Shown here piece by piece: positions 4,550 through 47,527 of a DNA stretch of 64,000 bases. The stretch's first letter is position 1; each line of letters opens with the position of its first letter. The position numbers and the translations under genes are program-made. The DNA is from a virus, in IMG/VR virus record IMGVR_UViG_3300049027_000140, positions 1 to 64,000 of that record. One strand, written 5' to 3'. The notes under the pieces were generated by a model. It saw only the letters and a list, made by a program, of their open reading frames with translations, did no database searches and was not told the origin of the DNA.

Positions 4550-4578
4550 TTGCGCGACCATACGTCGCGACGTATCAT
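4550..4578 (+). promoter_or_regulatory. sigma70 promoter TTGCGC-17-TATCAT with operator ATACGTCGCGACGTAT (4560-4575)
   Basis: third copy of same palindrome; divergent from 4409-4437 promoter. Confidence 0.8.
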
Positions 4579-12131: not shown

Positions 12132-14273
12132 GGCCCACCTCCAGCATCCAGCGCCATGGGGGCGTCGGCGTGAACCTCGGAAACTCCTGGGTTGGGCGTG
12201 GCGGGCTTCGGCCGCGGCACCTCCACCCTGGCCACGTCGAGCCCCTCACGCACCACGCGGTCGACGGTCTCGGCGGGCGCGTCGGCGGAGAGCGGCAGGG
12301 CGCGGATGAGCGCCACAGCAGCAGCCCGCTCCACGGTCACTGATCCCGTGCCGAGGTCGACGTCCGCCATGCTATCGATCGCAACTGCCGCCCGCTCGCG
12401 CATCTCGGCGGCGCCCTGCTCGCGGGCCACGCGCTCGCAAGCTCGCTCGTGCGCCTTGCCAAGGCGGTCGATCTCCACCTGCGCTTCGCGACGTGCCCCA
12501 CGCTTCGCCTCCCGCGCGGAGCGCCACGCCTCCTCCTCCAGCTCCGCCACCCGCTTCCGCAGTCGGTCCGCCTCCGAGCGCTCGAAGGCGAGGTCCCGCC
12601 GGGCTTGCTCGAGATCGGCCGCGCAGCTTCCCGCATCCGGGGCCTTCTCTCCCCGCGCCGCGGCGACGCCCATGCCGTAGAGCCGCTCGCCGACCATGCG
12701 ATCGTGTTCGCGCATCTCCTCGTCGAGCTTCTCCCACGTCAGCCGCGCGCCCCCGGCGCCCCTCCACGCCTGGTACACCTCGTGGACCTCCCGCCCGAGA
12801 GCCTCCCGGTCCGGATCGCCAGCGACCACCGCGGCCTTCTCCTCGCCCGCCTCCCGCTCTCCCCCGCCGGGCCCGTGCGGCGCATCCAGCAGGCGGCGTA
12901 GGTCGGCGGCGCACGTCCGGTGGGCAGCCTGTACGGCCGCCATGAATCCAAGCATGTAGCGCGAGGGCTTGCCGGCCCTGAGCCTCGCGCGCTCGCCGGC
13001 CATCACCTCGTCCATCTCCGAGGCCTCGGTCTCCCACCCCTCCGCCAGCGCGAGCAGCGCCGAGCGGTCCACGGGGGGGCGCGGGGGTGGCGATGCCCCG
13101 CATCGGGACAAGGTCAGCGCCGCATCGGCAGCGCCCGTTGACCGCCCCGATCACCTCGCGCTCGGTGCAGGTCGGGTTGGGACAATCGCCAGCGGCGGGC
13201 ATGCCACCATCCGGCGCCGGCTCTCCGCCTGTCGCCAGCGGGTGACCGTACTTCGGACACGGGTCGATCACCTCGGCCATGCCCGGGGGCGGTCCGCAGC
13301 GACAAGGATCCCCGCCCGTCGGGGGATAGCCGTCCGGGTGCGTCGCCGGGAGCGACACGTCGAACGCGTCAGAGAGGTCGAGCATGCACGATCGCCTGAT
13401 AAGCGCGCTCGAGTCGCGACGCGCCCACGAACCTGGATCGCTCTCGCTCGTCGCATCCCGAAGCCTGAGAGAGTGCCTCCGCGACGCTTCCCACGACGTG
13501 AGGAGCTCCGCCGCCTTGGCCTTGGCGCGGCGCTCGCCCTCGACGACGCCGTCATCGTGCGTCCTGCGGATCAGATCCGGGATCTGGGTCGCGGCGCGGC
13601 GCTCGCCTTCCTCGATGCCGGCGTTGAAGGCTGGTTGCCTGTCGTCGGCGGCAAGGTGCGGGTCGACGCAATGGGTCGCGCGCTGCCACCGCGTGTCGCG
13701 CTCACGCAGCGCCGCCGCTTCCGCGCGCGCCTCGTCGCGCTCGCGCGTCAGCTTCTCTGCCAGCGCGCCGGCCTCCTCCAGAGCGCGCGCGTGCTTCTCG
13801 ATCGCGGCGAACAGGTCGCGCGGGTTGCCGGTGAAGACGCGCAGGTCGCCACGGTCCAGCGCTTCGAGGGCGGCGACGGCCCGAGCGCTGTTCCGCGTGC
13901 GACACGGCCACGAGTCGAACGCCTCGCAGATCTCCAACGGCCCGCACTTCTGGCTGGCCAGGTCGCTGGCGCTCTCGTCGTAGCCCAGTCGCAGCAGCAT
14001 CCCGGCCACGGCATCGCGCGCTGTGGGCTCGCTCGGGGCGGGCGCAGCAGGTGGCGATTCCGAGCACCCGGGATCTCCGCAGTAGCCGCACCCGTCCGCC
14101 TCTGCCTCGCCGCCGCGCTCCTGGACATCGCGGATGCGCGCGGCGTGGATCGCCTCGGCGACGGGGTCAGGCTTCGCCGGGAGCCTCTGCGCCCGCCGCC
14201 CCGCCAGCGCCTGTGTCACCTCGGCGATCTCCGCGGCCGAATCGAACGTGATCTCCAGCTTGCCGTGTATCAC
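12128..14273 (-). CDS. large mosaic coiled-coil/Cys-rich protein interrupted by a frameshift at the G7 run 13073-13079
   Basis: coding-like sequence switches from frame of ORF 12372..14414 to frame of ORF 12128..13111 exactly at the homopolymer; removing one base gives ...ATPAPPVDRSALL... Confidence 0.55.
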
Positions 14274-14473
14274 TGGTTCTCCTTGCACACTCGCGCGGCT
14301 CGCTCCTCGAAGTACATCAAGACGTAGCCAACAACAAACGCCATGAAGAAGCCCGCGCCCATGCCAAAGGTCACGGCGAGCGCGGCGTCTTGACGGGCGG
14401 CTCCGTTCGCGCACAGCGCGGCGAGGAGCACGACGAACACCGCGTGGACTGCGGCCTGGAGGATGCGCTTCAT
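14270..14473 (-). CDS. small two-TM membrane protein
   Basis: two hydrophobic helices. Confidence 0.65.
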   Translation of the reverse strand: MKRILQAAVHAVFVVLLAALCANGAARQDAALAVTFGMGAGFFMAFVVGYVLMYFEERAARVCKENQ

Positions 14474-14483
14474 GGGGCCTCCC

Positions 14484-14834
14484 TCAGCACCGGATCAGTC
14501 CATCGGTCGGCCAGCTCTGGCCGCCGCTGGTCCCATGGATCTTGCCCAGCGCCTCCTGATCGCCGCCATAGGACGGGTCGATCACGTGCCTGAACTGCGC
14601 CGCGAGGTAGCGGCGGATCAGGGTGGCGTCCGGGCCGACAGGGCTCGGCTTCCGGAGGTGGTCCGTCAGCCACGCGACGAACACGTTGCTATGGTCCGGC
14701 TCCACCTTCGCGACCAGCGCGAGATGCGCCTCGATGCAGCGCGCGGCCGCGCCGTCGAGCTTCGGCGCGACAGACATCGCGTCACACAGCTCAAAGTACC
14801 CCTGCAACCAGTAACAGAACTCGTTCGCCTTCAT
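14484..14834 (-). CDS. conserved phage hypothetical protein (FCYWLQGYFE family)
   Basis: MKANEFCYWLQGYFEL motif. Confidence 0.75.
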   Translation of the reverse strand: MKANEFCYWLQGYFELCDAMSVAPKLDGAAARCIEAHLALVAKVEPDHSNVFVAWLTDHLRKPSPVGPDATLIRRYLAAQFRHVIDPSYGGDQEALGKIHGTSGGQSWPTDGLIRC

Positions 14835-15742
14835 GCTTCGGTCTCCTTCGCGCCGCCGCCCAGCGCATCCGCCGCCACATCCCGCCGCACCTCGGCCCAA
14901 TACGCCTCGCCGAAAGCCCTGTAGTCGAACTCCAGACCTCGCAGCACGCGCTCCACCCGGGCGTATCGCCGCAGGCACGAGGCCCGCAGCGCCTCGACCG
15001 ACGGGTGCAGGTCCGTGGCCGAGAGGAACGGGCGCGCGCGGTCGGCGAGGCGGGGCAGGTACTCGCCGAGCCAGAAGCCCATGAAGTCGGCCCAGCTACG
15101 GTACCGTCGCGCCGTGCCGCCGATGACGCTGTAGCGGTTCAGCCGAAAGCGTCCAAGCTCCTCCTCCGGGAAGTAGCACCGCCCGGCCGCCGCATCCTCC
15201 GCGATGTCCCGCACGTTGTTCCACGCCTGATCCAGCGCTCCGAACGCGCCGATGCTCTCCCAGTGCTCCGGCGTCAGAAACGGGAAGAGCCGGAAGAAGC
15301 CACCCACCTCAAGGACCATGCGGTCGTGCTGCTCCAACGTCACGGGCACGAGGGAGCGGCCGTAGTCGGCGGAGAGGGCGTCGAGCCAGCAGGACCACGC
15401 CTCGAGCGACCGATCGCGCTCGAACATCGACGCCGGCGCCCACGCGCGCCCGATGCTGCGGATCATCTCCGCGTGCGGCTCGAGCGGGTCCGGGACACAG
15501 CGCAGGTACTCGCTCCGCCGCCAGAGACGCAGGAACTGGCCGAGCACCCAGCGGTCGGCCTCGGACAGGCGGTCGACCTCGCGCATCCACCGGCAGCGCT
15601 CCTTCCACACGGCGCGCACGTCGGCGGGCTGGTCGCGCAGGAAGGCGAGGTTGTCCTCGTCCTTGAGCCGGTCGTCGCTGTCGCGGTGGTGCGACGCGTA
15701 GCCGTTGTCGAGGGTGGGGAGAGCGGGAGAGGCGAGGGTCAT
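14831..15742 (-). CDS. squalene/phytoene synthase family protein
   Basis: FGALDQAWNNVRDIAEDAAAGRCYFPEEEL closely follows SQS/PSY signature GxxxQxxNxxRDxxEDxxxxRxYxP; first acidic motif EVDRLSEAD. Confidence 0.8.
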   Translation of the reverse strand: MTLASPALPTLDNGYASHHRDSDDRLKDEDNLAFLRDQPADVRAVWKERCRWMREVDRLSEADRWVLGQFLRLWRRSEYLRCVPDPLEPHAEMIRSIGRAWAPASMFERDRSLEAWSCWLDALSADYGRSLVPVTLEQHDRMVLEVGGFFRLFPFLTPEHWESIGAFGALDQAWNNVRDIAEDAAAGRCYFPEEELGRFRLNRYSVIGGTARRYRSWADFMGFWLGEYLPRLADRARPFLSATDLHPSVEALRASCLRRYARVERVLRGLEFDYRAFGEAYWAEVRRDVAADALGGGAKETEA

Positions 15743-15987
15743 GCTCTCGCACCTCGACTGGCCGGGAGAGCCGCGCGGCGAGCGTCGAGCTCGCTGCATG
15801 TGATCGTCTCGGCGCCCGGCGGCGCGCAGTGCTTCGGCGGGTTGTTCCACCACGAGCGCCCGCACGTCAGGCATGCCTCGGCCTCGAAGCAAGAACCGTC
15901 GTCGCTCATCACTGCGATGAGGTCTGATTGGGTGGCGTGTCCGGCGCACCAAGGACACAGCCCCAGCGGGCTATTCGACACACTCAT
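15739..15987 (-). CDS. small zinc-ribbon protein (CPWC...CLTC; Lar-like)
   Basis: two CxxC pairs; GGAGG RBS. Confidence 0.6.
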   Translation of the reverse strand: MSVSNSPLGLCPWCAGHATQSDLIAVMSDDGSCFEAEACLTCGRSWWNNPPKHCAPPGAETITCSELDARRAALPASRGARA

Positions 15988-16031
15988 CACATCTCCTCCG
16001 CGCTCACGGCGTCCGCCGGCTGCGCGAGTGG

Positions 16032-16059
16032 GGTGTAGCAGGTGAAGAGTTGGGCGCAA
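16032..16059 (-). promoter_or_regulatory. putative internal promoter TTGCGC-16-TACACC
   Basis: lies in gap after DnaC-like gene; same -35 as other phage promoters. Confidence 0.45.
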
Positions 16060-16068
16060 GGTGGATAG

Positions 16069-16998
16069 TCATGCAGCCTTGGTGTTCGCGACGGGGTGGA
16101 GGTCGATAATCACGCCCTGCTCCTCGATGCGGTTGATGGTCGGCGGGCCATACCGCTCCTCGAGCTCAGCGATCGTGCGCCCGCTGGTGATGAACGTCGG
16201 CCTCCCGCGGTCCTCGCAGCGGTCGTAGATCACATCGCGGATGACGGCCGGGTCCTCCTCGAACCCCACCTCATCAAGGATCAGCAGCGTCGCGCGCTGG
16301 GCGATGCGCTCGAGTTCCGCCAGCTCACCGAGCCGCGTCTCACGGCGCGCCCGTCCGAGCTTCAGGCCGGATACCACCCTGACGCCGCGCGCGAAACGGA
16401 ACGCGTTGGCGTCAAGTCCCCCTTGCAGGGCCTCGTCGAGGATGCGGTGCGCGCACGCGATTGCTGTCTTGCTCTTGCCAATGCGCGTTGGCCCGACGAG
16501 AAGCACGTTACCAACCTTCCGCTTCCAGACGGCGCGCTCGATGAGCGGTAGCGCTGCCTGCGGGTTCGCCGACCGCCGCGCCGCCTCGCGCGCCTTCTGC
16601 GTTGCATCCGCAAACTCCTGCTTCCCCACGCGGCACCACTCGAGCGAATCCGCGGCGCTCGCCGCGGACCCCACACGAGAGACCGAGTCGTACGCCTCCG
16701 CGAGCAGCGCGAGTCGCTGCCGCCGGCGGTCCTTCTCGGCGCACGGCGCGCAGTACCCGCCGCGGCGCTCGACCGGCTTGTCGCACCCGCCGGCGCAGCG
16801 GAACACGAAGTCCTTGGGCGGCTCGATGCCTGCCCGGCGAGCAAAGAGCCCGACGAGTTCGTCGAAGCCGCTGTCCTGTGGTCCTGCTGGGGCCTCAATG
16901 CGCCTGCGCTCTTCCACCTCACGCAGCATCCGGACGTCGTCCTCAGTGAGGTCGCCGGATGCGTCGCCCGTGTCGTCGATCTCGTGCTCGGTGCTCAT
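16069..16998 (-). CDS. DnaC/IstB-like AAA+ helicase loader
   Basis: Walker A GPTRIGKS, Walker B LLILDE, RPTFITS, N-terminal Cys motif; follows initiator gene. Confidence 0.85.
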   Translation of the reverse strand: MSTEHEIDDTGDASGDLTEDDVRMLREVEERRRIEAPAGPQDSGFDELVGLFARRAGIEPPKDFVFRCAGGCDKPVERRGGYCAPCAEKDRRRQRLALLAEAYDSVSRVGSAASAADSLEWCRVGKQEFADATQKAREAARRSANPQAALPLIERAVWKRKVGNVLLVGPTRIGKSKTAIACAHRILDEALQGGLDANAFRFARGVRVVSGLKLGRARRETRLGELAELERIAQRATLLILDEVGFEEDPAVIRDVIYDRCEDRGRPTFITSGRTIAELEERYGPPTINRIEEQGVIIDLHPVANTKAA

Positions 16999-18203
16999 AT
17001 CCCGTCCTGCTCAAGGTGAAGTGCGAGCTCCGCGGCCCGCTTTCGCTGATGGGCCGCTCGCTCGTCTGGGTCGGTCCGACCGCCCTGGAACTGCACCACG
17101 CGGCCCGATCGCGGCCCCGTTGTCGGCTTGCCACCCTGAAGCCACTCCGCCCACTTCGGCGGCGTGAACCCCTTCTCGAAGTGCTCCTGGCCGGACTTCG
17201 CCCGCCTGTACTCCGCGGAACTGGCCCGAATCCACGCGGTGGCGGCTTCGCCCGTGAGTGGCTGTCCGTCGGCGTCGAGCGCGTACGCCTTCAGGATCGG
17301 CCAGAAGACCGACTTCTGCGGTGGCACCGCGAACGGTGCCCCGGTAACGTCGGTCTGCCCCTGCGCGTAGGCCTCGGCGTAGCGCTGCCCTGCCGGCGGC
17401 TCGTCGGCTGCGCGCGCAGAGCTCCGGGGTGCACGGCGCGCGGCTTTCGCCGGCGCCGCCGCACCCGCCGGCGCCATGGCGCCGAACAGGGGCAGCGGGC
17501 CGGTGACCGCCGCCCGCTTGGGCGACTCGACCGGCGGCGCCGGGCGCGCGGAGGGCATCGGGCGGACGCTGGCAGGCGTCGGCTCGGGGTCGCCGCCGCC
17601 ATCGAACTCCGGCGTCCCGGCCACTGCGCCCACATCGGACCCCTCCACGCGCGCGGCGCTAGCCGGCGCGCAGTCCCCCGCAGGGGGGTGGTCTTCCTTG
17701 GGTGCTTCCATGGGAGATTCCCTGAGAGATTTGTGTCCGGTTACCGGACCCCTGCCGTCCGGTAATCGGACCCCTGCCGTCCGGTAATCGGACCCCTGCC
17801 GTCCGGTAATCGGACTGGTCCGATTATCGGACTGGTCCGGCAGCTGGACTAGTCCGACCATCGGACTGGTCGCGGGAGCCTCGACCGGCGGCGACGGCGC
17901 GCGGACGACGCTGCCGCCGCTGGTCCGGACGAGGTACATCGTCGAGGCGCGGCCGCCTGGGCCGGCGGGCGCGCACCCCTGCCGCTCGATCCAGCGCGCC
18001 GCCTCGAGCTCGTTCAGGCACGTCACGACCGTGCTCCTCGCGAGGCCGGTCATCGCAGCCAAGCGAGACAGCGACGGCCAGGCGCGGTCGGAATCCCGTG
18101 CGTGGTCGGCCAGCACCAGCAGGACGAGCCGGTGCGACGCCGACATCTGCTTGGGTGAGAGGGCCTCCAGGACCCGCATCACCTCGAAGATGGCGAGCGC
18201 CAT
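16995..18203 (-). CDS. phage replication initiator (N-terminal winged HTH, lambda O analog)
   Basis: RLVLLVLADHA...AWPSLSRLAAMTGLARSTVVTCLNELE; internal iterons. Confidence 0.85.
   Translation of the reverse strand: MALAIFEVMRVLEALSPKQMSASHRLVLLVLADHARDSDRAWPSLSRLAAMTGLARSTVVTCLNELEAARWIERQGCAPAGPGGRASTMYLVRTSGGSVVRAPSPPVEAPATSPMVGLVQLPDQSDNRTSPITGRQGSDYRTAGVRLPDGRGPVTGHKSLRESPMEAPKEDHPPAGDCAPASAARVEGSDVGAVAGTPEFDGGGDPEPTPASVRPMPSARPAPPVESPKRAAVTGPLPLFGAMAPAGAAAPAKAARRAPRSSARAADEPPAGQRYAEAYAQGQTDVTGAPFAVPPQKSVFWPILKAYALDADGQPLTGEAATAWIRASSAEYRRAKSGQEHFEKGFTPPKWAEWLQGGKPTTGPRSGRVVQFQGGRTDPDERAAHQRKRAAELALHLEQDGI
17735..17866. repeat. replication origin iterons: 7 copies of GTCCG-N5-(C/T)GGAC
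   Basis: copies start at 17735, 17757, 17779, 17801 (22-bp period) then 17818, 17835, 17852 (17-bp period). Confidence 0.85.
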
Positions 18204-18928
18204 CAGTGCGCCTCGTGGGGAAGGATGTCGTCTCCCACCCGGGATCCGTATTCCACGCCGGCGTCGAGGGCCGCTGTAGCTCCCATCTCGCTCGGGTCGA
18301 TGCACTCATTCTCGTCATCGGCCATGCGCTGCTCAGCAACGGCCATGTAGTGTTGGGACAGCGCCTCGTTGATTCGGTCGACGACCACGGCGACGCTCTC
18401 GACGGACGTGGCCGCGCGCCTGCCGTCGAGGCGGGCCTGAGTCAGCGGGTTGGTCGGGGCGCTGATCTCGGAGGCGAGGTACTTCGCGTTGAGCAGCGTC
18501 GCTAAGTCATCGTCGGACAGGACCCCTGTGTGCCCGAACGTGACAACGTCCGCGTCCGCGATCTTGTCGCCGATTGGCATTCCCTCAGCGATGCCGAGGA
18601 TGAACTGCACCTGCTCGTCCGTGAACCCATGCATGGCAGGCGCCTCTCGAGGCTTCCGCTTCTGCTCCTCCGGGAAGGCCCACCGCATCCCATCGATGAA
18701 GCCAATCAGACGCGGATCCGCGCGGAACCACTCGCCGTGGAGCCGCAGGTCGGCGAAGCGCTCGTGGAGGCCCCGCTCGTGCTGCGGGCTCCCGGGGGCG
18801 AACGCGAGCAGCTTCAGCGGCTTTGAGTTGCCGGTCTGGAGCGCCGAGAGCCGCGCAAACGGGTCCCCGCCCGTGTAGCCGATCTTGATGGCCCCGTCGG
18901 GGGCCTCCTGGATGAAGTAGATCGGCAT
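18203..18928 (-). CDS. GIY-YIG superfamily (T5orf172/MUG113-like) protein
   Basis: IYFIQ...IKIGYT...RLSALQTG...ERGLHERF...GEWF. Confidence 0.85.
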   Translation of the reverse strand: MPIYFIQEAPDGAIKIGYTGGDPFARLSALQTGNSKPLKLLAFAPGSPQHERGLHERFADLRLHGEWFRADPRLIGFIDGMRWAFPEEQKRKPREAPAMHGFTDEQVQFILGIAEGMPIGDKIADADVVTFGHTGVLSDDDLATLLNAKYLASEISAPTNPLTQARLDGRRAATSVESVAVVVDRINEALSQHYMAVAEQRMADDENECIDPSEMGATAALDAGVEYGSRVGDDILPHEAH

Positions 18929-30398: not shown

Positions 30399-30428
30399 AT
30401 TGTATGCACGACAAGACGAACTGCGCAA
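30399..30428 (-). promoter_or_regulatory. lytic (cro) promoter TTGCGC-18-TACAAT with putative operator TCGTCTTGTCGTGCATAC
   Basis: hexamers at 30423-30428 and 30399-30404. Confidence 0.65.
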
Positions 30429-46152: not shown

Positions 46153-46664
46153 TGCCCGAGATCCTCCTCTCCCCCGGCGACATCTTCGCCAGCGGCTGCG
46201 AGGCGCTGGTCAACCCGGTCGACACCACGGCCGCCATGGGTGCCGGCCTCGCGCTGGCGTTCACCAAGCGCTTCTCGCAGCAGACGACGTGGTACCGCGA
46301 GCACGCCCGCCGCGGGTTCGCTGAGGCCGGCAGCGTCTACCACGTGCTGCCGCGCCGAGACGAGGAGAGGCTCTCCGCCGCGCGCTGGGTGCTGGAGCGG
46401 CACAGGGCCGGCGGACGCGCGCAGCCGCTCGTGCTGTTCGCCACGACCAAGGCGTCGTGGAAGAAACCCTCCGACCTCCGCTGGGTCATCGGCTGCTGCC
46501 AGGCGCTCGTGGACGTGGTGGCCGAGCTCGGCATCCGGTCGATCGGCATCCCGGCGCTGGGCTGCGGCGAGGGAAAGCTCTCCTGGACCGACGTGCGCCC
46601 GCTGCTGCTCGGCGCGGCGCAGCAGATGCAGTGCGAGCGCGTGGTGGTGTTTGAGCCAAGGTGA
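46149..46664 (+). CDS. macrodomain (DarG/TARG1-like ADP-ribosylhydrolase)
   Basis: GDIF...ALVNPV...MGAGLALAF...FATTKASW...SIGIPALGCGEGKLSW. Confidence 0.88.
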   Translation: MMPEILLSPGDIFASGCEALVNPVDTTAAMGAGLALAFTKRFSQQTTWYREHARRGFAEAGSVYHVLPRRDEERLSAARWVLERHRAGGRAQPLVLFATTKASWKKPSDLRWVIGCCQALVDVVAELGIRSIGIPALGCGEGKLSWTDVRPLLLGAAQQMQCERVVVFEPR

Positions 46665-47527
46665 TTGCGGATCTGCCCGACAGACATCATATTAGGATAT
46701 CGATGCAGCTGCCAATTGGACGCCGGTTGAAGCACAGCGACATCACGCCGGAGATGGAGACCGAGCTTGCGCGCCAGTGTCAGGCTGGCGACACGCGAGC
46801 CGGTGCCGCTCTGGTCATGGCGAACGAGCCCATGATCTACAAGTTCGTGCGGCGGTACTTTCGCAAAGGCGTCCGGACCGAGGACATCATGCAGGCGGCG
46901 CGGTTTGGGTTCTACCGCGGGATCTTACGATTCGACCCGGCCGTGGGCGCTCGGCTCACGACCTATGCGCTCTACTGGGCGAGGAACGAGGCGGTCGACG
47001 CACTCCAGGGCGAGGGGCCCACGATCCGCATCCCGCGGCACGTCTTCGACGCGATCTACAAGTCGGCGAAGACCGGAGAGGCACTGGATGAGGAGACGGC
47101 CGAGGCGGCGCGGCTGCTGACCACGCCGAGCCTCGACATCCCGGTGCGCAGGGACGGGTCCACGCGCGGCGACCTCGAGGTGAACCCGATGCCGGGCCCA
47201 GAAGCATCGGCCGAGGCCGACGACGCCCAGCGACGCCGCCGGGAGCTCATCCAGCGGGCGCTGACGTGGCTGACCGATCGGGAGCGCGAGATCGTCGAGC
47301 GTCGGTTCTGCGAGGAGCCGGAGAGCTACGAAGCGATCGGCGCCTCGCTCGGCTTCACGAAGCAGAGGACCGAGCAGATCATGAAACGCGCGCTGCCGAA
47401 GCTCGACCGGGCCGTGCGGCGCGTGATGGCGAAGGACGACTGGATGCTCTGGGGCGCGCGCGGGCCGCTGAAGCCGCTTGGGGAGACGGCGAGGGGCGAA
47501 GCGGAGAGCGTGGAGGTGGCGAGGTGA
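46661..47527 (+). CDS. sigma70-family RNA polymerase sigma factor
   Basis: region 1.2 ETELARQCQAGD, region 2 EDIMQ...FDPAVGARLTTYALYW, IRIP, region 4 LTDREREIVERRF...SYEAIG..LGFTKQRTEQI; start could be ATG near 46703. Confidence 0.9.
   Translation: MIADLPDRHHIRISMQLPIGRRLKHSDITPEMETELARQCQAGDTRAGAALVMANEPMIYKFVRRYFRKGVRTEDIMQAARFGFYRGILRFDPAVGARLTTYALYWARNEAVDALQGEGPTIRIPRHVFDAIYKSAKTGEALDEETAEAARLLTTPSLDIPVRRDGSTRGDLEVNPMPGPEASAEADDAQRRRRELIQRALTWLTDREREIVERRFCEEPESYEAIGASLGFTKQRTEQIMKRALPKLDRAVRRVMAKDDWMLWGARGPLKPLGETARGEAESVEVAR

Follow-up and report, generated by a model that had tools for sequence, protein, structure and literature searches.

A 64,000-nucleotide (nt) stretch of viral DNA (the window, bases 1-64000 of the 98,115-bp IMG/VR virus record IMGVR_UViG_3300049027_000140, which CheckV estimated to be 78% complete) contains a gene of the squalene synthase/phytoene synthase (SQS/PSY) family, whose product is probably a catalytically competent Mg2+-dependent prenyl-diphosphate enzyme. 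On the same reading, the enzyme belongs to a small uncharacterised subfamily with the SQS/PSY fold, and its gene is an old phage auxiliary gene related to a core paralogue of the host, Sorangium. In the list of open reading frames (ORFs) of the window the gene occupied 14831..15742 (stop codon included) on the minus strand and encoded 303 amino acids (aa) from the ATG at 15742. The preliminary description of this DNA had noted a 303-aa ORF with an SQS/PSY string and an upstream acidic motif, and these were recovered as the string GALDQAWNNVRDIAEDAAAGRCYFP within the 303-aa protein and as R54-x-x-D57-x-x-x-E61. Its reading of the string as a near-complete signature implying squalene or phytoene synthesis was not supported, since the models of the named enzymes failed, the catalytic Tyr was replaced by Met and the first motif was D-R-x-x-E.

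The Pfam model SQS_PSY (PF00494), which the preliminary description had proposed as a check, scored the protein narrowly above the threshold (29.9 bits, cut-off 26), and the match was partial, covering only profile positions 142-234 of 263; the host paralogue reached 59.8 bits. All of the NCBIfam equivalog models for HpnD, HpnC and CrtB failed. The best match was HpnD with 25.5 bits against a cut-off of 278.6, and the others scored 21.7 against 550, 17.9 against 480 and 16.9 against 250. An AlphaFold2 model calculated from 27 homologues was all-helical, with a predicted local distance difference test (pLDDT) value of 87.6 and a predicted template modelling (pTM) score of 0.85, and was compared with known structures using Foldseek and VIA-align. 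Full-length Foldseek matches had template modelling (TM) scores of 0.6-0.69. The model superimposed on the dehydrosqualene synthase 5iys with a Z score of 20.2 and a root-mean-square deviation of 3.5 Å over 254 aligned residues, followed by the CrtM-like 8is6/8is8 (Z 20.1), CrtM (3ae0, Z 19.5), HpnC (4hd1, Z 18.2), the carbazole prenyltransferases LvqB4 and CqsB4 (Z 17.9 and 17.7), human squalene synthase (Z 16.3) and YisP (Z 15.5). As modelled, the protein has the whole SQS/PSY class I isoprenoid synthase fold, in agreement with the fold expected in the preliminary description. Among the predicted viral structures of BFVD, no fold match was found below an E value of 0.2.

The family alignment showed that D24, K27, D28, R54, D57, E61, D171, N175, R178, D179, E182, D183, R259, R262, and Y281 were invariant. 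The second motif, N175-x-x-R178-D179-x-x-E182-D183, was conserved in 70 of 70 subfamily sequences (20 of the phage clade, 9 of hosts and 41 others), as were R54, D57 and E61 of the first motif; D24, K27 and D28 formed an additional invariant group. In the HMMER alignment with CrtM, the residues Q172, N175, R178, D179, E182, D183, and Y190 corresponded to Q165, N168, R171, D172, E175, D176, and Y183; the roles of D48, D52, H18, Y129, Q165 and N168 of CrtM have been given (PMC13304436). A profile-profile alignment (HHalign) with 32 canonical Myxococcota enzymes covered residues 6-296 with a probability of 97-98%; the 32-sequence profile was needed, as an earlier alignment with three canonical sequences had extended only over residues 129-275. 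In the larger alignment R54, D57 and E61 fell on the canonical R..D-D-x-x-D and Y260 on the canonical C-terminal Tyr, and the mapping of the first motif agreed with the structural offset, in which residue 24 of the model was aligned to residue 15 of CrtM.

Two positions of the active site departed from the canonical pattern. Met142 was aligned, by both HMMER and HHalign, to the catalytic Tyr of the Y-C-x-x-V-A-G block (Y129 of CrtM). Met stood at this position in 67 of the 70 subfamily sequences, and all 12 reference enzymes had Tyr there; the reference set, labelled by NCBIfam, consisted of CrtB-like enzymes and of tandem pairs of HpnD-like and HpnC-like ones. The aligned first motif was D57-R58-x-x-E61, with D-[RQH]-x-x-E in 70/70 subfamily sequences against DDxxD in 12/12 canonical ones; two carboxylates were thus kept at the canonical spacing, with the second Asp changed to Arg, Gln or His and the last Asp to Glu. 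Because of the Met at the catalytic Tyr position and the D-R-x-x-E motif, canonical head-to-head chemistry is improbable. Within the phage clade, Q172 was Gln in 16 of 20 members and His in 4, and the main subclade (16/20) had Ala-Trp instead of Phe-Phe/Tyr at positions 173-174, beside the second motif. Judged from the model and its active-site residues, the protein very probably has catalytic activity and binds an allylic diphosphate via Mg2+. Its product is probably neither squalene nor phytoene, and its isoprenoid reaction is probably a non-canonical one.

The host is myxobacterial, namely Sorangium, as the preliminary description had it in proposing a myxobacterium. A chromosomal paralogue was present in 19/19 species genomes of the genus of Sorangium sp. 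So ce388 (E <= 1e-20), in one copy each, located at 0.6-2.0 Mb; at the same threshold a subfamily member was found in 6 of the 121 genomes of the family sample and in 0 of 300 other genomes of the phylum sample. Prophage-type copies were seen in 2 of the 19 genus genomes. In a third one, which also has a full chromosomal copy, a 63-residue fragment (G416:C1:820014-820202, L117) matched the C-terminal part of the subfamily profile and probably represents what is left of a decayed copy. The chromosomal copy of So ce388 lies among signalling genes, adjoining a HAMP-PAS histidine kinase and a Ser/Thr kinase. Each Sorangium genome also had one canonical CrtB-like gene, whereas HpnC and HpnD were not found in these genomes. 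HMG-CoA reductase was present in 4 of 4 host genomes. Squalene cyclase gave only weak partial matches in the host genomes and none whatever in So ce388, and the idea that the enzyme is the missing squalene synthase of Sorangium was rejected, as no convincing squalene cyclase was found in the host.

A maximum-likelihood tree of 73 sequences resolved four clades, the Polyangiaceae chromosomal, cyanobacteria-like, high-GC soil, and phage clades. The phage clade comprised 20 sequences with a support of 100 in the Shimodaira-Hasegawa-like approximate likelihood ratio test (SH-aLRT) and included every sequence with known viral or prophage context. In this comparison with host homologues, which the preliminary description had proposed, joining the phage and Polyangiaceae chromosomal clades was not rejected (p value of 0.73 in the approximately unbiased test, p-AU), and the outgroup branch of the canonical CrtB-like enzyme of the host was 3.7 substitutions per site long. 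The tree forcing the two clades together even had a likelihood above that of the free quick search. The tree would thus allow for an old capture of the gene from the host lineage. The phage protein shared ~41% identity with the host paralogue in the full-length codon alignment, and identity among members of the phage clade fell to 46%, so that capture, if it occurred, was not recent. The ratios of nonsynonymous to synonymous substitution rates (dN/dS) were 0.31-0.33 for close phage pairs and 0.25 for a host pair; these values are upper estimates since the strong bias in GC content at third codon positions (GC3) depresses dS. Such ratios indicate that the enzyme gene is under purifying selection.

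Relatives of the enzyme were few, with only 38 matches among the 5.8 billion proteins searched. The closest, at 70-81% identity, were chromosomal genes of three Sorangium strains, So ce388, So ce134, and So ce233. To either side of the gene, the loci of So ce388 and So ce134 showed synteny with the phage early region and are therefore prophages. Two other IMG/VR contigs, 101 kb and 126 kb long, were colinear with the window and encoded the enzyme at 63% and 47% identity, respectively. In all five loci (the window, two prophages, and two IMG/VR contigs) the enzyme gene directly followed the replication module, and this was so with modules of different types. The window and So ce388 have an initiator with a DnaC-like loader; the module of the other three loci, So ce134 and the two viral contigs, has a DnaB-like helicase. 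The DnaB-like helicase of the 126-kb phage (L026:5314-7827, 837 aa) matched DnaB in two separate stretches, and its residues ~189-586 between them matched terminase, primase, and DnaC-type P-loop families of PHROG; an inserted domain or an intein-like element may be present there.

The record itself is that of a temperate tailed phage with a contractile tail. PHROG scans identified genes for the large terminase, portal, head protease, major head protein, tail sheath, baseplate proteins and tape measure, together with an integrase, RecT, a sigma-70-type factor (46661-47527), a nucleotide pyrophosphohydrolase, a replication initiator and a DnaC-like loader. The enzyme gene is inside a tightly packed minus-strand operon with phage genes on both sides and an ATGA start/stop overlap at each end, which, with the structural and lysogeny genes of the record, confirmed that it is phage-borne rather than flanking host DNA, as had been described. 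As judged from the sequences, the gene qualifies as an auxiliary metabolic gene: it is inside a bona fide phage, it is a homologue of a host metabolic gene, and related phages keep it under selection. Polyprenyl synthase, amine-oxidase-type desaturase, HMG-CoA reductase and UbiA prenyltransferase genes were not found in the 98-kb record, where the enzyme gene was the sole isoprenoid-type gene found, and the enzyme must therefore depend on precursors of the host.

A non-coding block of ~70 nt preceded the cassette in 5 of 5 phage-type loci (Table 1). It consisted of TTGCNC, 16 nt, TGC-TA(C/A)AC, then GCGCAGCC..GAC..GTGAGCGC, and finally the Shine-Dalgarno sequence GGAGGAG. In the window the hexamers were TTGCGC (16059-16054) and TACACC (16037-16032) with a 16-nt spacer, starting 10 nt past the stop of the DnaC-like gene. 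They were identical in So ce388, with 6 of the 16 spacer positions different. The genes before the block were DnaC-like or DnaB-like, the small ORFs after it were mutually unrelated, and each viral contig had one copy of the block, always at this site. The preliminary description had assigned the gene its own promoter, TTGCGC-16-TACACC; the hexamers exist as described and the block is conserved, but their role as a promoter is only putative; they matched only 6 of the 12 positions of the sigma-70 consensus, and a consensus scan found no promoter here, nor a nearby terminator. The pattern TTGCGC-N15-18-TANNN[CT] occurred at 3 sites in the phage, which is about the estimated chance expectation, so the hexamers alone are not evidence and only the conservation across loci is. 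A separate regulatory signal gains support from that conservation, because the hexamer block was kept in five loci despite differing flanking genes. A small hairpin was predicted before the Shine-Dalgarno sequence, and one compensatory change (G:C to U:A) lends weak support to an RNA structure. We conclude from the alignment that the cassette carries a conserved cis-acting signal of its own, which may be a promoter for a host or phage sigma factor, an RNA-level element, or both. Two more promoter-like TTGCGC-N17/18-TA...T sites, with better -10 hexamers (TATCAT and TACAAT), were located at 4550-4578 (+) and 30399-30428 (-), and near-identical promoter-like sites were found in the 101-kb phage (L025:16596-16722).

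The subfamily was small also beyond phages and Sorangium. An exhaustive profile search of 1.84 billion representatives yielded 81 proteins with E <= 1e-30, a number that rose to 124 with E <= 1e-10; matches below ~60 bits were mostly short and partial, many of them in longer or differently sized proteins. Three metagenome cluster representatives, P0170 and P0189 (full-length) and P0036 (truncated), had a complete HMG-CoA reductase domain joined to the subfamily domain, which ties the subfamily to isoprenoid metabolism derived from mevalonate. No biosynthetic cluster was found near members in the neighbour analysis of 40 loci. On cyanobacteria-like contigs the neighbours were accD, psbV, petE, and cytochrome c genes; at L029:3851-9026 and L035-L038 the gene stood beside accD, two cytochrome c-550 (psbV-like) genes, plastocyanin and a c-type cytochrome, a conserved synteny without a functional clue. 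Chromosomal members convergent to a HAMP-PAS histidine kinase were seen at L010:6687-10290 (So ce388), L046:3153-6765 and ~12 similar soil metagenome loci, and in the soil clade a single-domain response regulator lay between the subfamily gene and the histidine kinase. Some members of 510-640 aa (L034:7938-9638, L065:5503-7413, P0158, P0164, and P0173) carried 200-300 extra residues without a Pfam match.

Compared with known enzymes, the phage protein shared the all-helical fold of CrtM and CrtM-like enzymes (2zco, 3ae0, 5iys, 8is6) and of CrtB/PSY over ~255 residues (Z 19-20), along with N-x-x-R-D-x-x-E-D, the Arg and the first Asp of the first motif, the C-terminal Tyr, and the Tyr/Phe after the second motif. 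It differed from them in having an identity of only 10-13%, D-R-x-x-E for D-D-x-x-D, Met for Y129 of CrtM, no YCxxVAGxVG block, an 11-residue N-terminal insertion with an invariant D..KD, and failing scores in the equivalog models. HpnC and HpnD also have this fold, but the phage enzyme scored ~1/10 of their cut-offs; unlike it, they retain the Tyr and DDxxD, and neither an hpnE nor a cyclase context is present. The phytoene-synthase-like aromatic prenyltransferases NzsG, CqsB4 and LvqB4 share the fold and two acidic motifs and were matched by both sequence and structure. However, they are located in carbazole biosynthetic clusters of actinomycetes, and no such cluster or acceptor pathway was present here. 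The carotenoid pathway of ChoanoVirus is reportedly complete and canonical. This giant virus of choanoflagellates likewise carries an SQS/PSY-family gene as an auxiliary metabolic gene and is reported to bring a rhodopsin photosystem (PMC6789865); it was the nearest case found in the literature, but it is a giant virus of eukaryotes, whereas a lone non-canonical enzyme occurs here in a bacteriophage.

These observations suggest how the gene might serve the phage. A lineage of large Sorangium phages keeps, at a fixed site directly after the replication module, a small cassette of the conserved upstream element, a variable small ORF, and the enzyme gene. The enzyme would ionise an allylic diphosphate derived from mevalonate and supplied by the host, farnesyl diphosphate (FPP) or geranylgeranyl diphosphate (GGPP), and, during infection or lysogeny, would either drain the prenyl-diphosphate pool of the host or make a specific lipid. 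Diversion of that pool is a reasonable proposal. More tentatively, and with some doubt, the whole subfamily (~80-120 clusters worldwide, with members that are core in Sorangium and others in cyanobacteria and soil bacteria, some fused to HMG-CoA reductase) may catalyse a reaction so far undescribed for the SQS/PSY fold, with the phage version overriding or supplementing the host product in infection or lysogeny via its dedicated regulatory element. Several points weigh against an active enzyme of this kind. The Pfam and PDB sequence matches were limited to the half of the protein with the second motif, the change of Tyr to Met together with the D-to-E and D-to-R changes in the first motif could lower or abolish catalysis, the neighbours of chromosomal members were housekeeping or signalling genes without a pathway clue, and dN/dS of ~0.3-0.5 is not very low, though the GC3 bias depresses dS.

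Other explanations were weighed against a non-canonical enzyme. A canonical head-to-head synthase, producing squalene, dehydrosqualene, phytoene, or presqualene diphosphate as HpnD does, would boost host carotenoids or triterpenoids. The top structural matches were indeed dehydrosqualene synthases of CrtM type and HpnC, the second motif and most of the diphosphate-binding residues were retained, and relatives are named "phytoene synthase" in source databases. This is nevertheless rather unlikely, given equivalog scores of 17-26 bits against cut-offs of 250-550, Met in place of the otherwise conserved Tyr, and the 3.7 substitutions per site to the CrtB-like enzyme of the host, which already owns such a gene and has no convincing squalene cyclase, while the phage has no desaturase or polyprenyl synthase. 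Four features oppose squalene or phytoene synthesis, namely the lost Tyr, the altered first motif, the failed equivalogs, and the absence of downstream pathway genes from the phage as well as the host. The lost head-to-head Tyr would fit a different second substrate, and prenyl transfer to a non-isoprenoid acceptor, as by NzsG, CqsB4 and LvqB4, would be allowed by the fold, since these enzymes keep the two Asp-rich motifs and perform non-head-to-head chemistry (PMC7466098). CqsB4 and LvqB4 were matched by sequence (E 0.002-0.005) as well as by structure (Z 17.7-17.9). We regard such a transfer as unlikely, for the Z scores were below those of the CrtM-type matches, acceptor-biosynthesis genes were next to no member, and no candidate acceptor is known.

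The phage enzyme could also hydrolyse or drain prenyl diphosphates like the phosphatase YisP, starving envelope synthesis that depends on undecaprenyl phosphate, or quinone or carotenoid synthesis. YisP has the same fold, and a lone enzyme without partner genes in the phage fits the role of a sink; but YisP is not known to have the second Asp-rich motif, which is strictly kept here, and the presence in 19/19 host genomes of a core paralogue whose active site is the same points to a defined product, so that this explanation is improbable. It is very improbable that the protein is a non-catalytic mimic of the host paralogue, acting as a decoy or dominant-negative form that binds the partners or regulators of the host enzyme. 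In its favour, the phage and host proteins are paralogues in one rare subfamily and the host gene adjoins a HAMP-PAS histidine kinase. Against it, the metal-binding carboxylates D57, E61, D179, E182, and D183 and the diphosphate-binding residues R54, N175, and R178 did not vary among the 20 sequences of the phage clade, where identity falls to 46%, and invariant catalytic residues are expected only with catalysis under selection.

Returning to the non-canonical enzyme, auxiliary genes of isoprenoid type appear to be very rare in bacteriophages. The protein matched no PHROG family, tblastn with it gave 0 matches among 50,697 deposited phage genomes, and BFVD contained no match. Megablast with 16 kb of the region also gave 0 matches among deposited phages, and no report of a bacteriophage SQS/PSY-family gene was found in the searchable literature. 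The phage gene and the core host paralogue make a clean host-phage pair with which to find out what an uncharacterised branch of a well-studied enzyme superfamily does, and through the HMG-CoA reductase fusions its tie to the mevalonate pathway can be tested. As a producer of natural products Sorangium is important, and an enzyme of the phage or host that made a new isoprenoid would also be of biosynthetic interest.

Table 1. Features around the enzyme gene in the window
Feature	Coordinates	Strand	Basis or remark
Replication initiator, winged-helix HTH_36 domain	16995..18305	-	PF13730; phrog_1032 and other replication-initiation PHROGs
DnaC-like helicase loader, last gene of the replication module upstream	16069..16998	-	PF01695, 31.4 bits; phrog_50
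Conserved ~70-nt non-coding element, candidate promoter with extended -10 and leader hairpin	15993..16062	-	Five-locus alignment
Cys-rich 82-aa ORF (CPWC...CLTC, zinc-ribbon-like)	15739..15987	-	TGA stop overlaps enzyme ATG; GGAGGAG ribosome-binding site
116-aa hypothetical protein	14484..14834	-	ATG overlaps enzyme TGA stop (ATGA)
Hydrophobic 67-aa small ORF, next in operon	14270..14473	-	GGGAGG ribosome-binding site; not conserved in other loci

The open frame of the enzyme spans 14831..15958 (-), and a 375-aa version would start with GTG at 15958. This longer start is not supported, as it was not conserved in the relatives, which begin at the equivalent of ATG 15742, and as this ATG overlaps the stop of the small ORF (ATGA). 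The Cys-rich 82-aa ORF had a GC3 of 0.77, the highest among the three frames; it gave no Pfam, PHROG-type or PADLOC match and was not conserved in the relatives, and its slot was filled by unrelated small ORFs in other loci. PADLOC assigned no family to the small neighbours of the enzyme gene.

The 116-aa gene is a frequent but not an obligatory downstream neighbour. Its homologues adjoined the enzyme gene in L025 (64% identity), L026 (88%), and L027 (82%) and were absent in L002 and L003. A role as dedicated partner of the enzyme was rejected, since two prophages lack the gene and its family is a wider one, with 105 homologues of which 0 had a Pfam domain. Between the window and the 126-kb phage (L026:8909-9253) this protein was 88% identical and the adjacent enzyme only 47%, which shows mosaic exchange inside the cassette.

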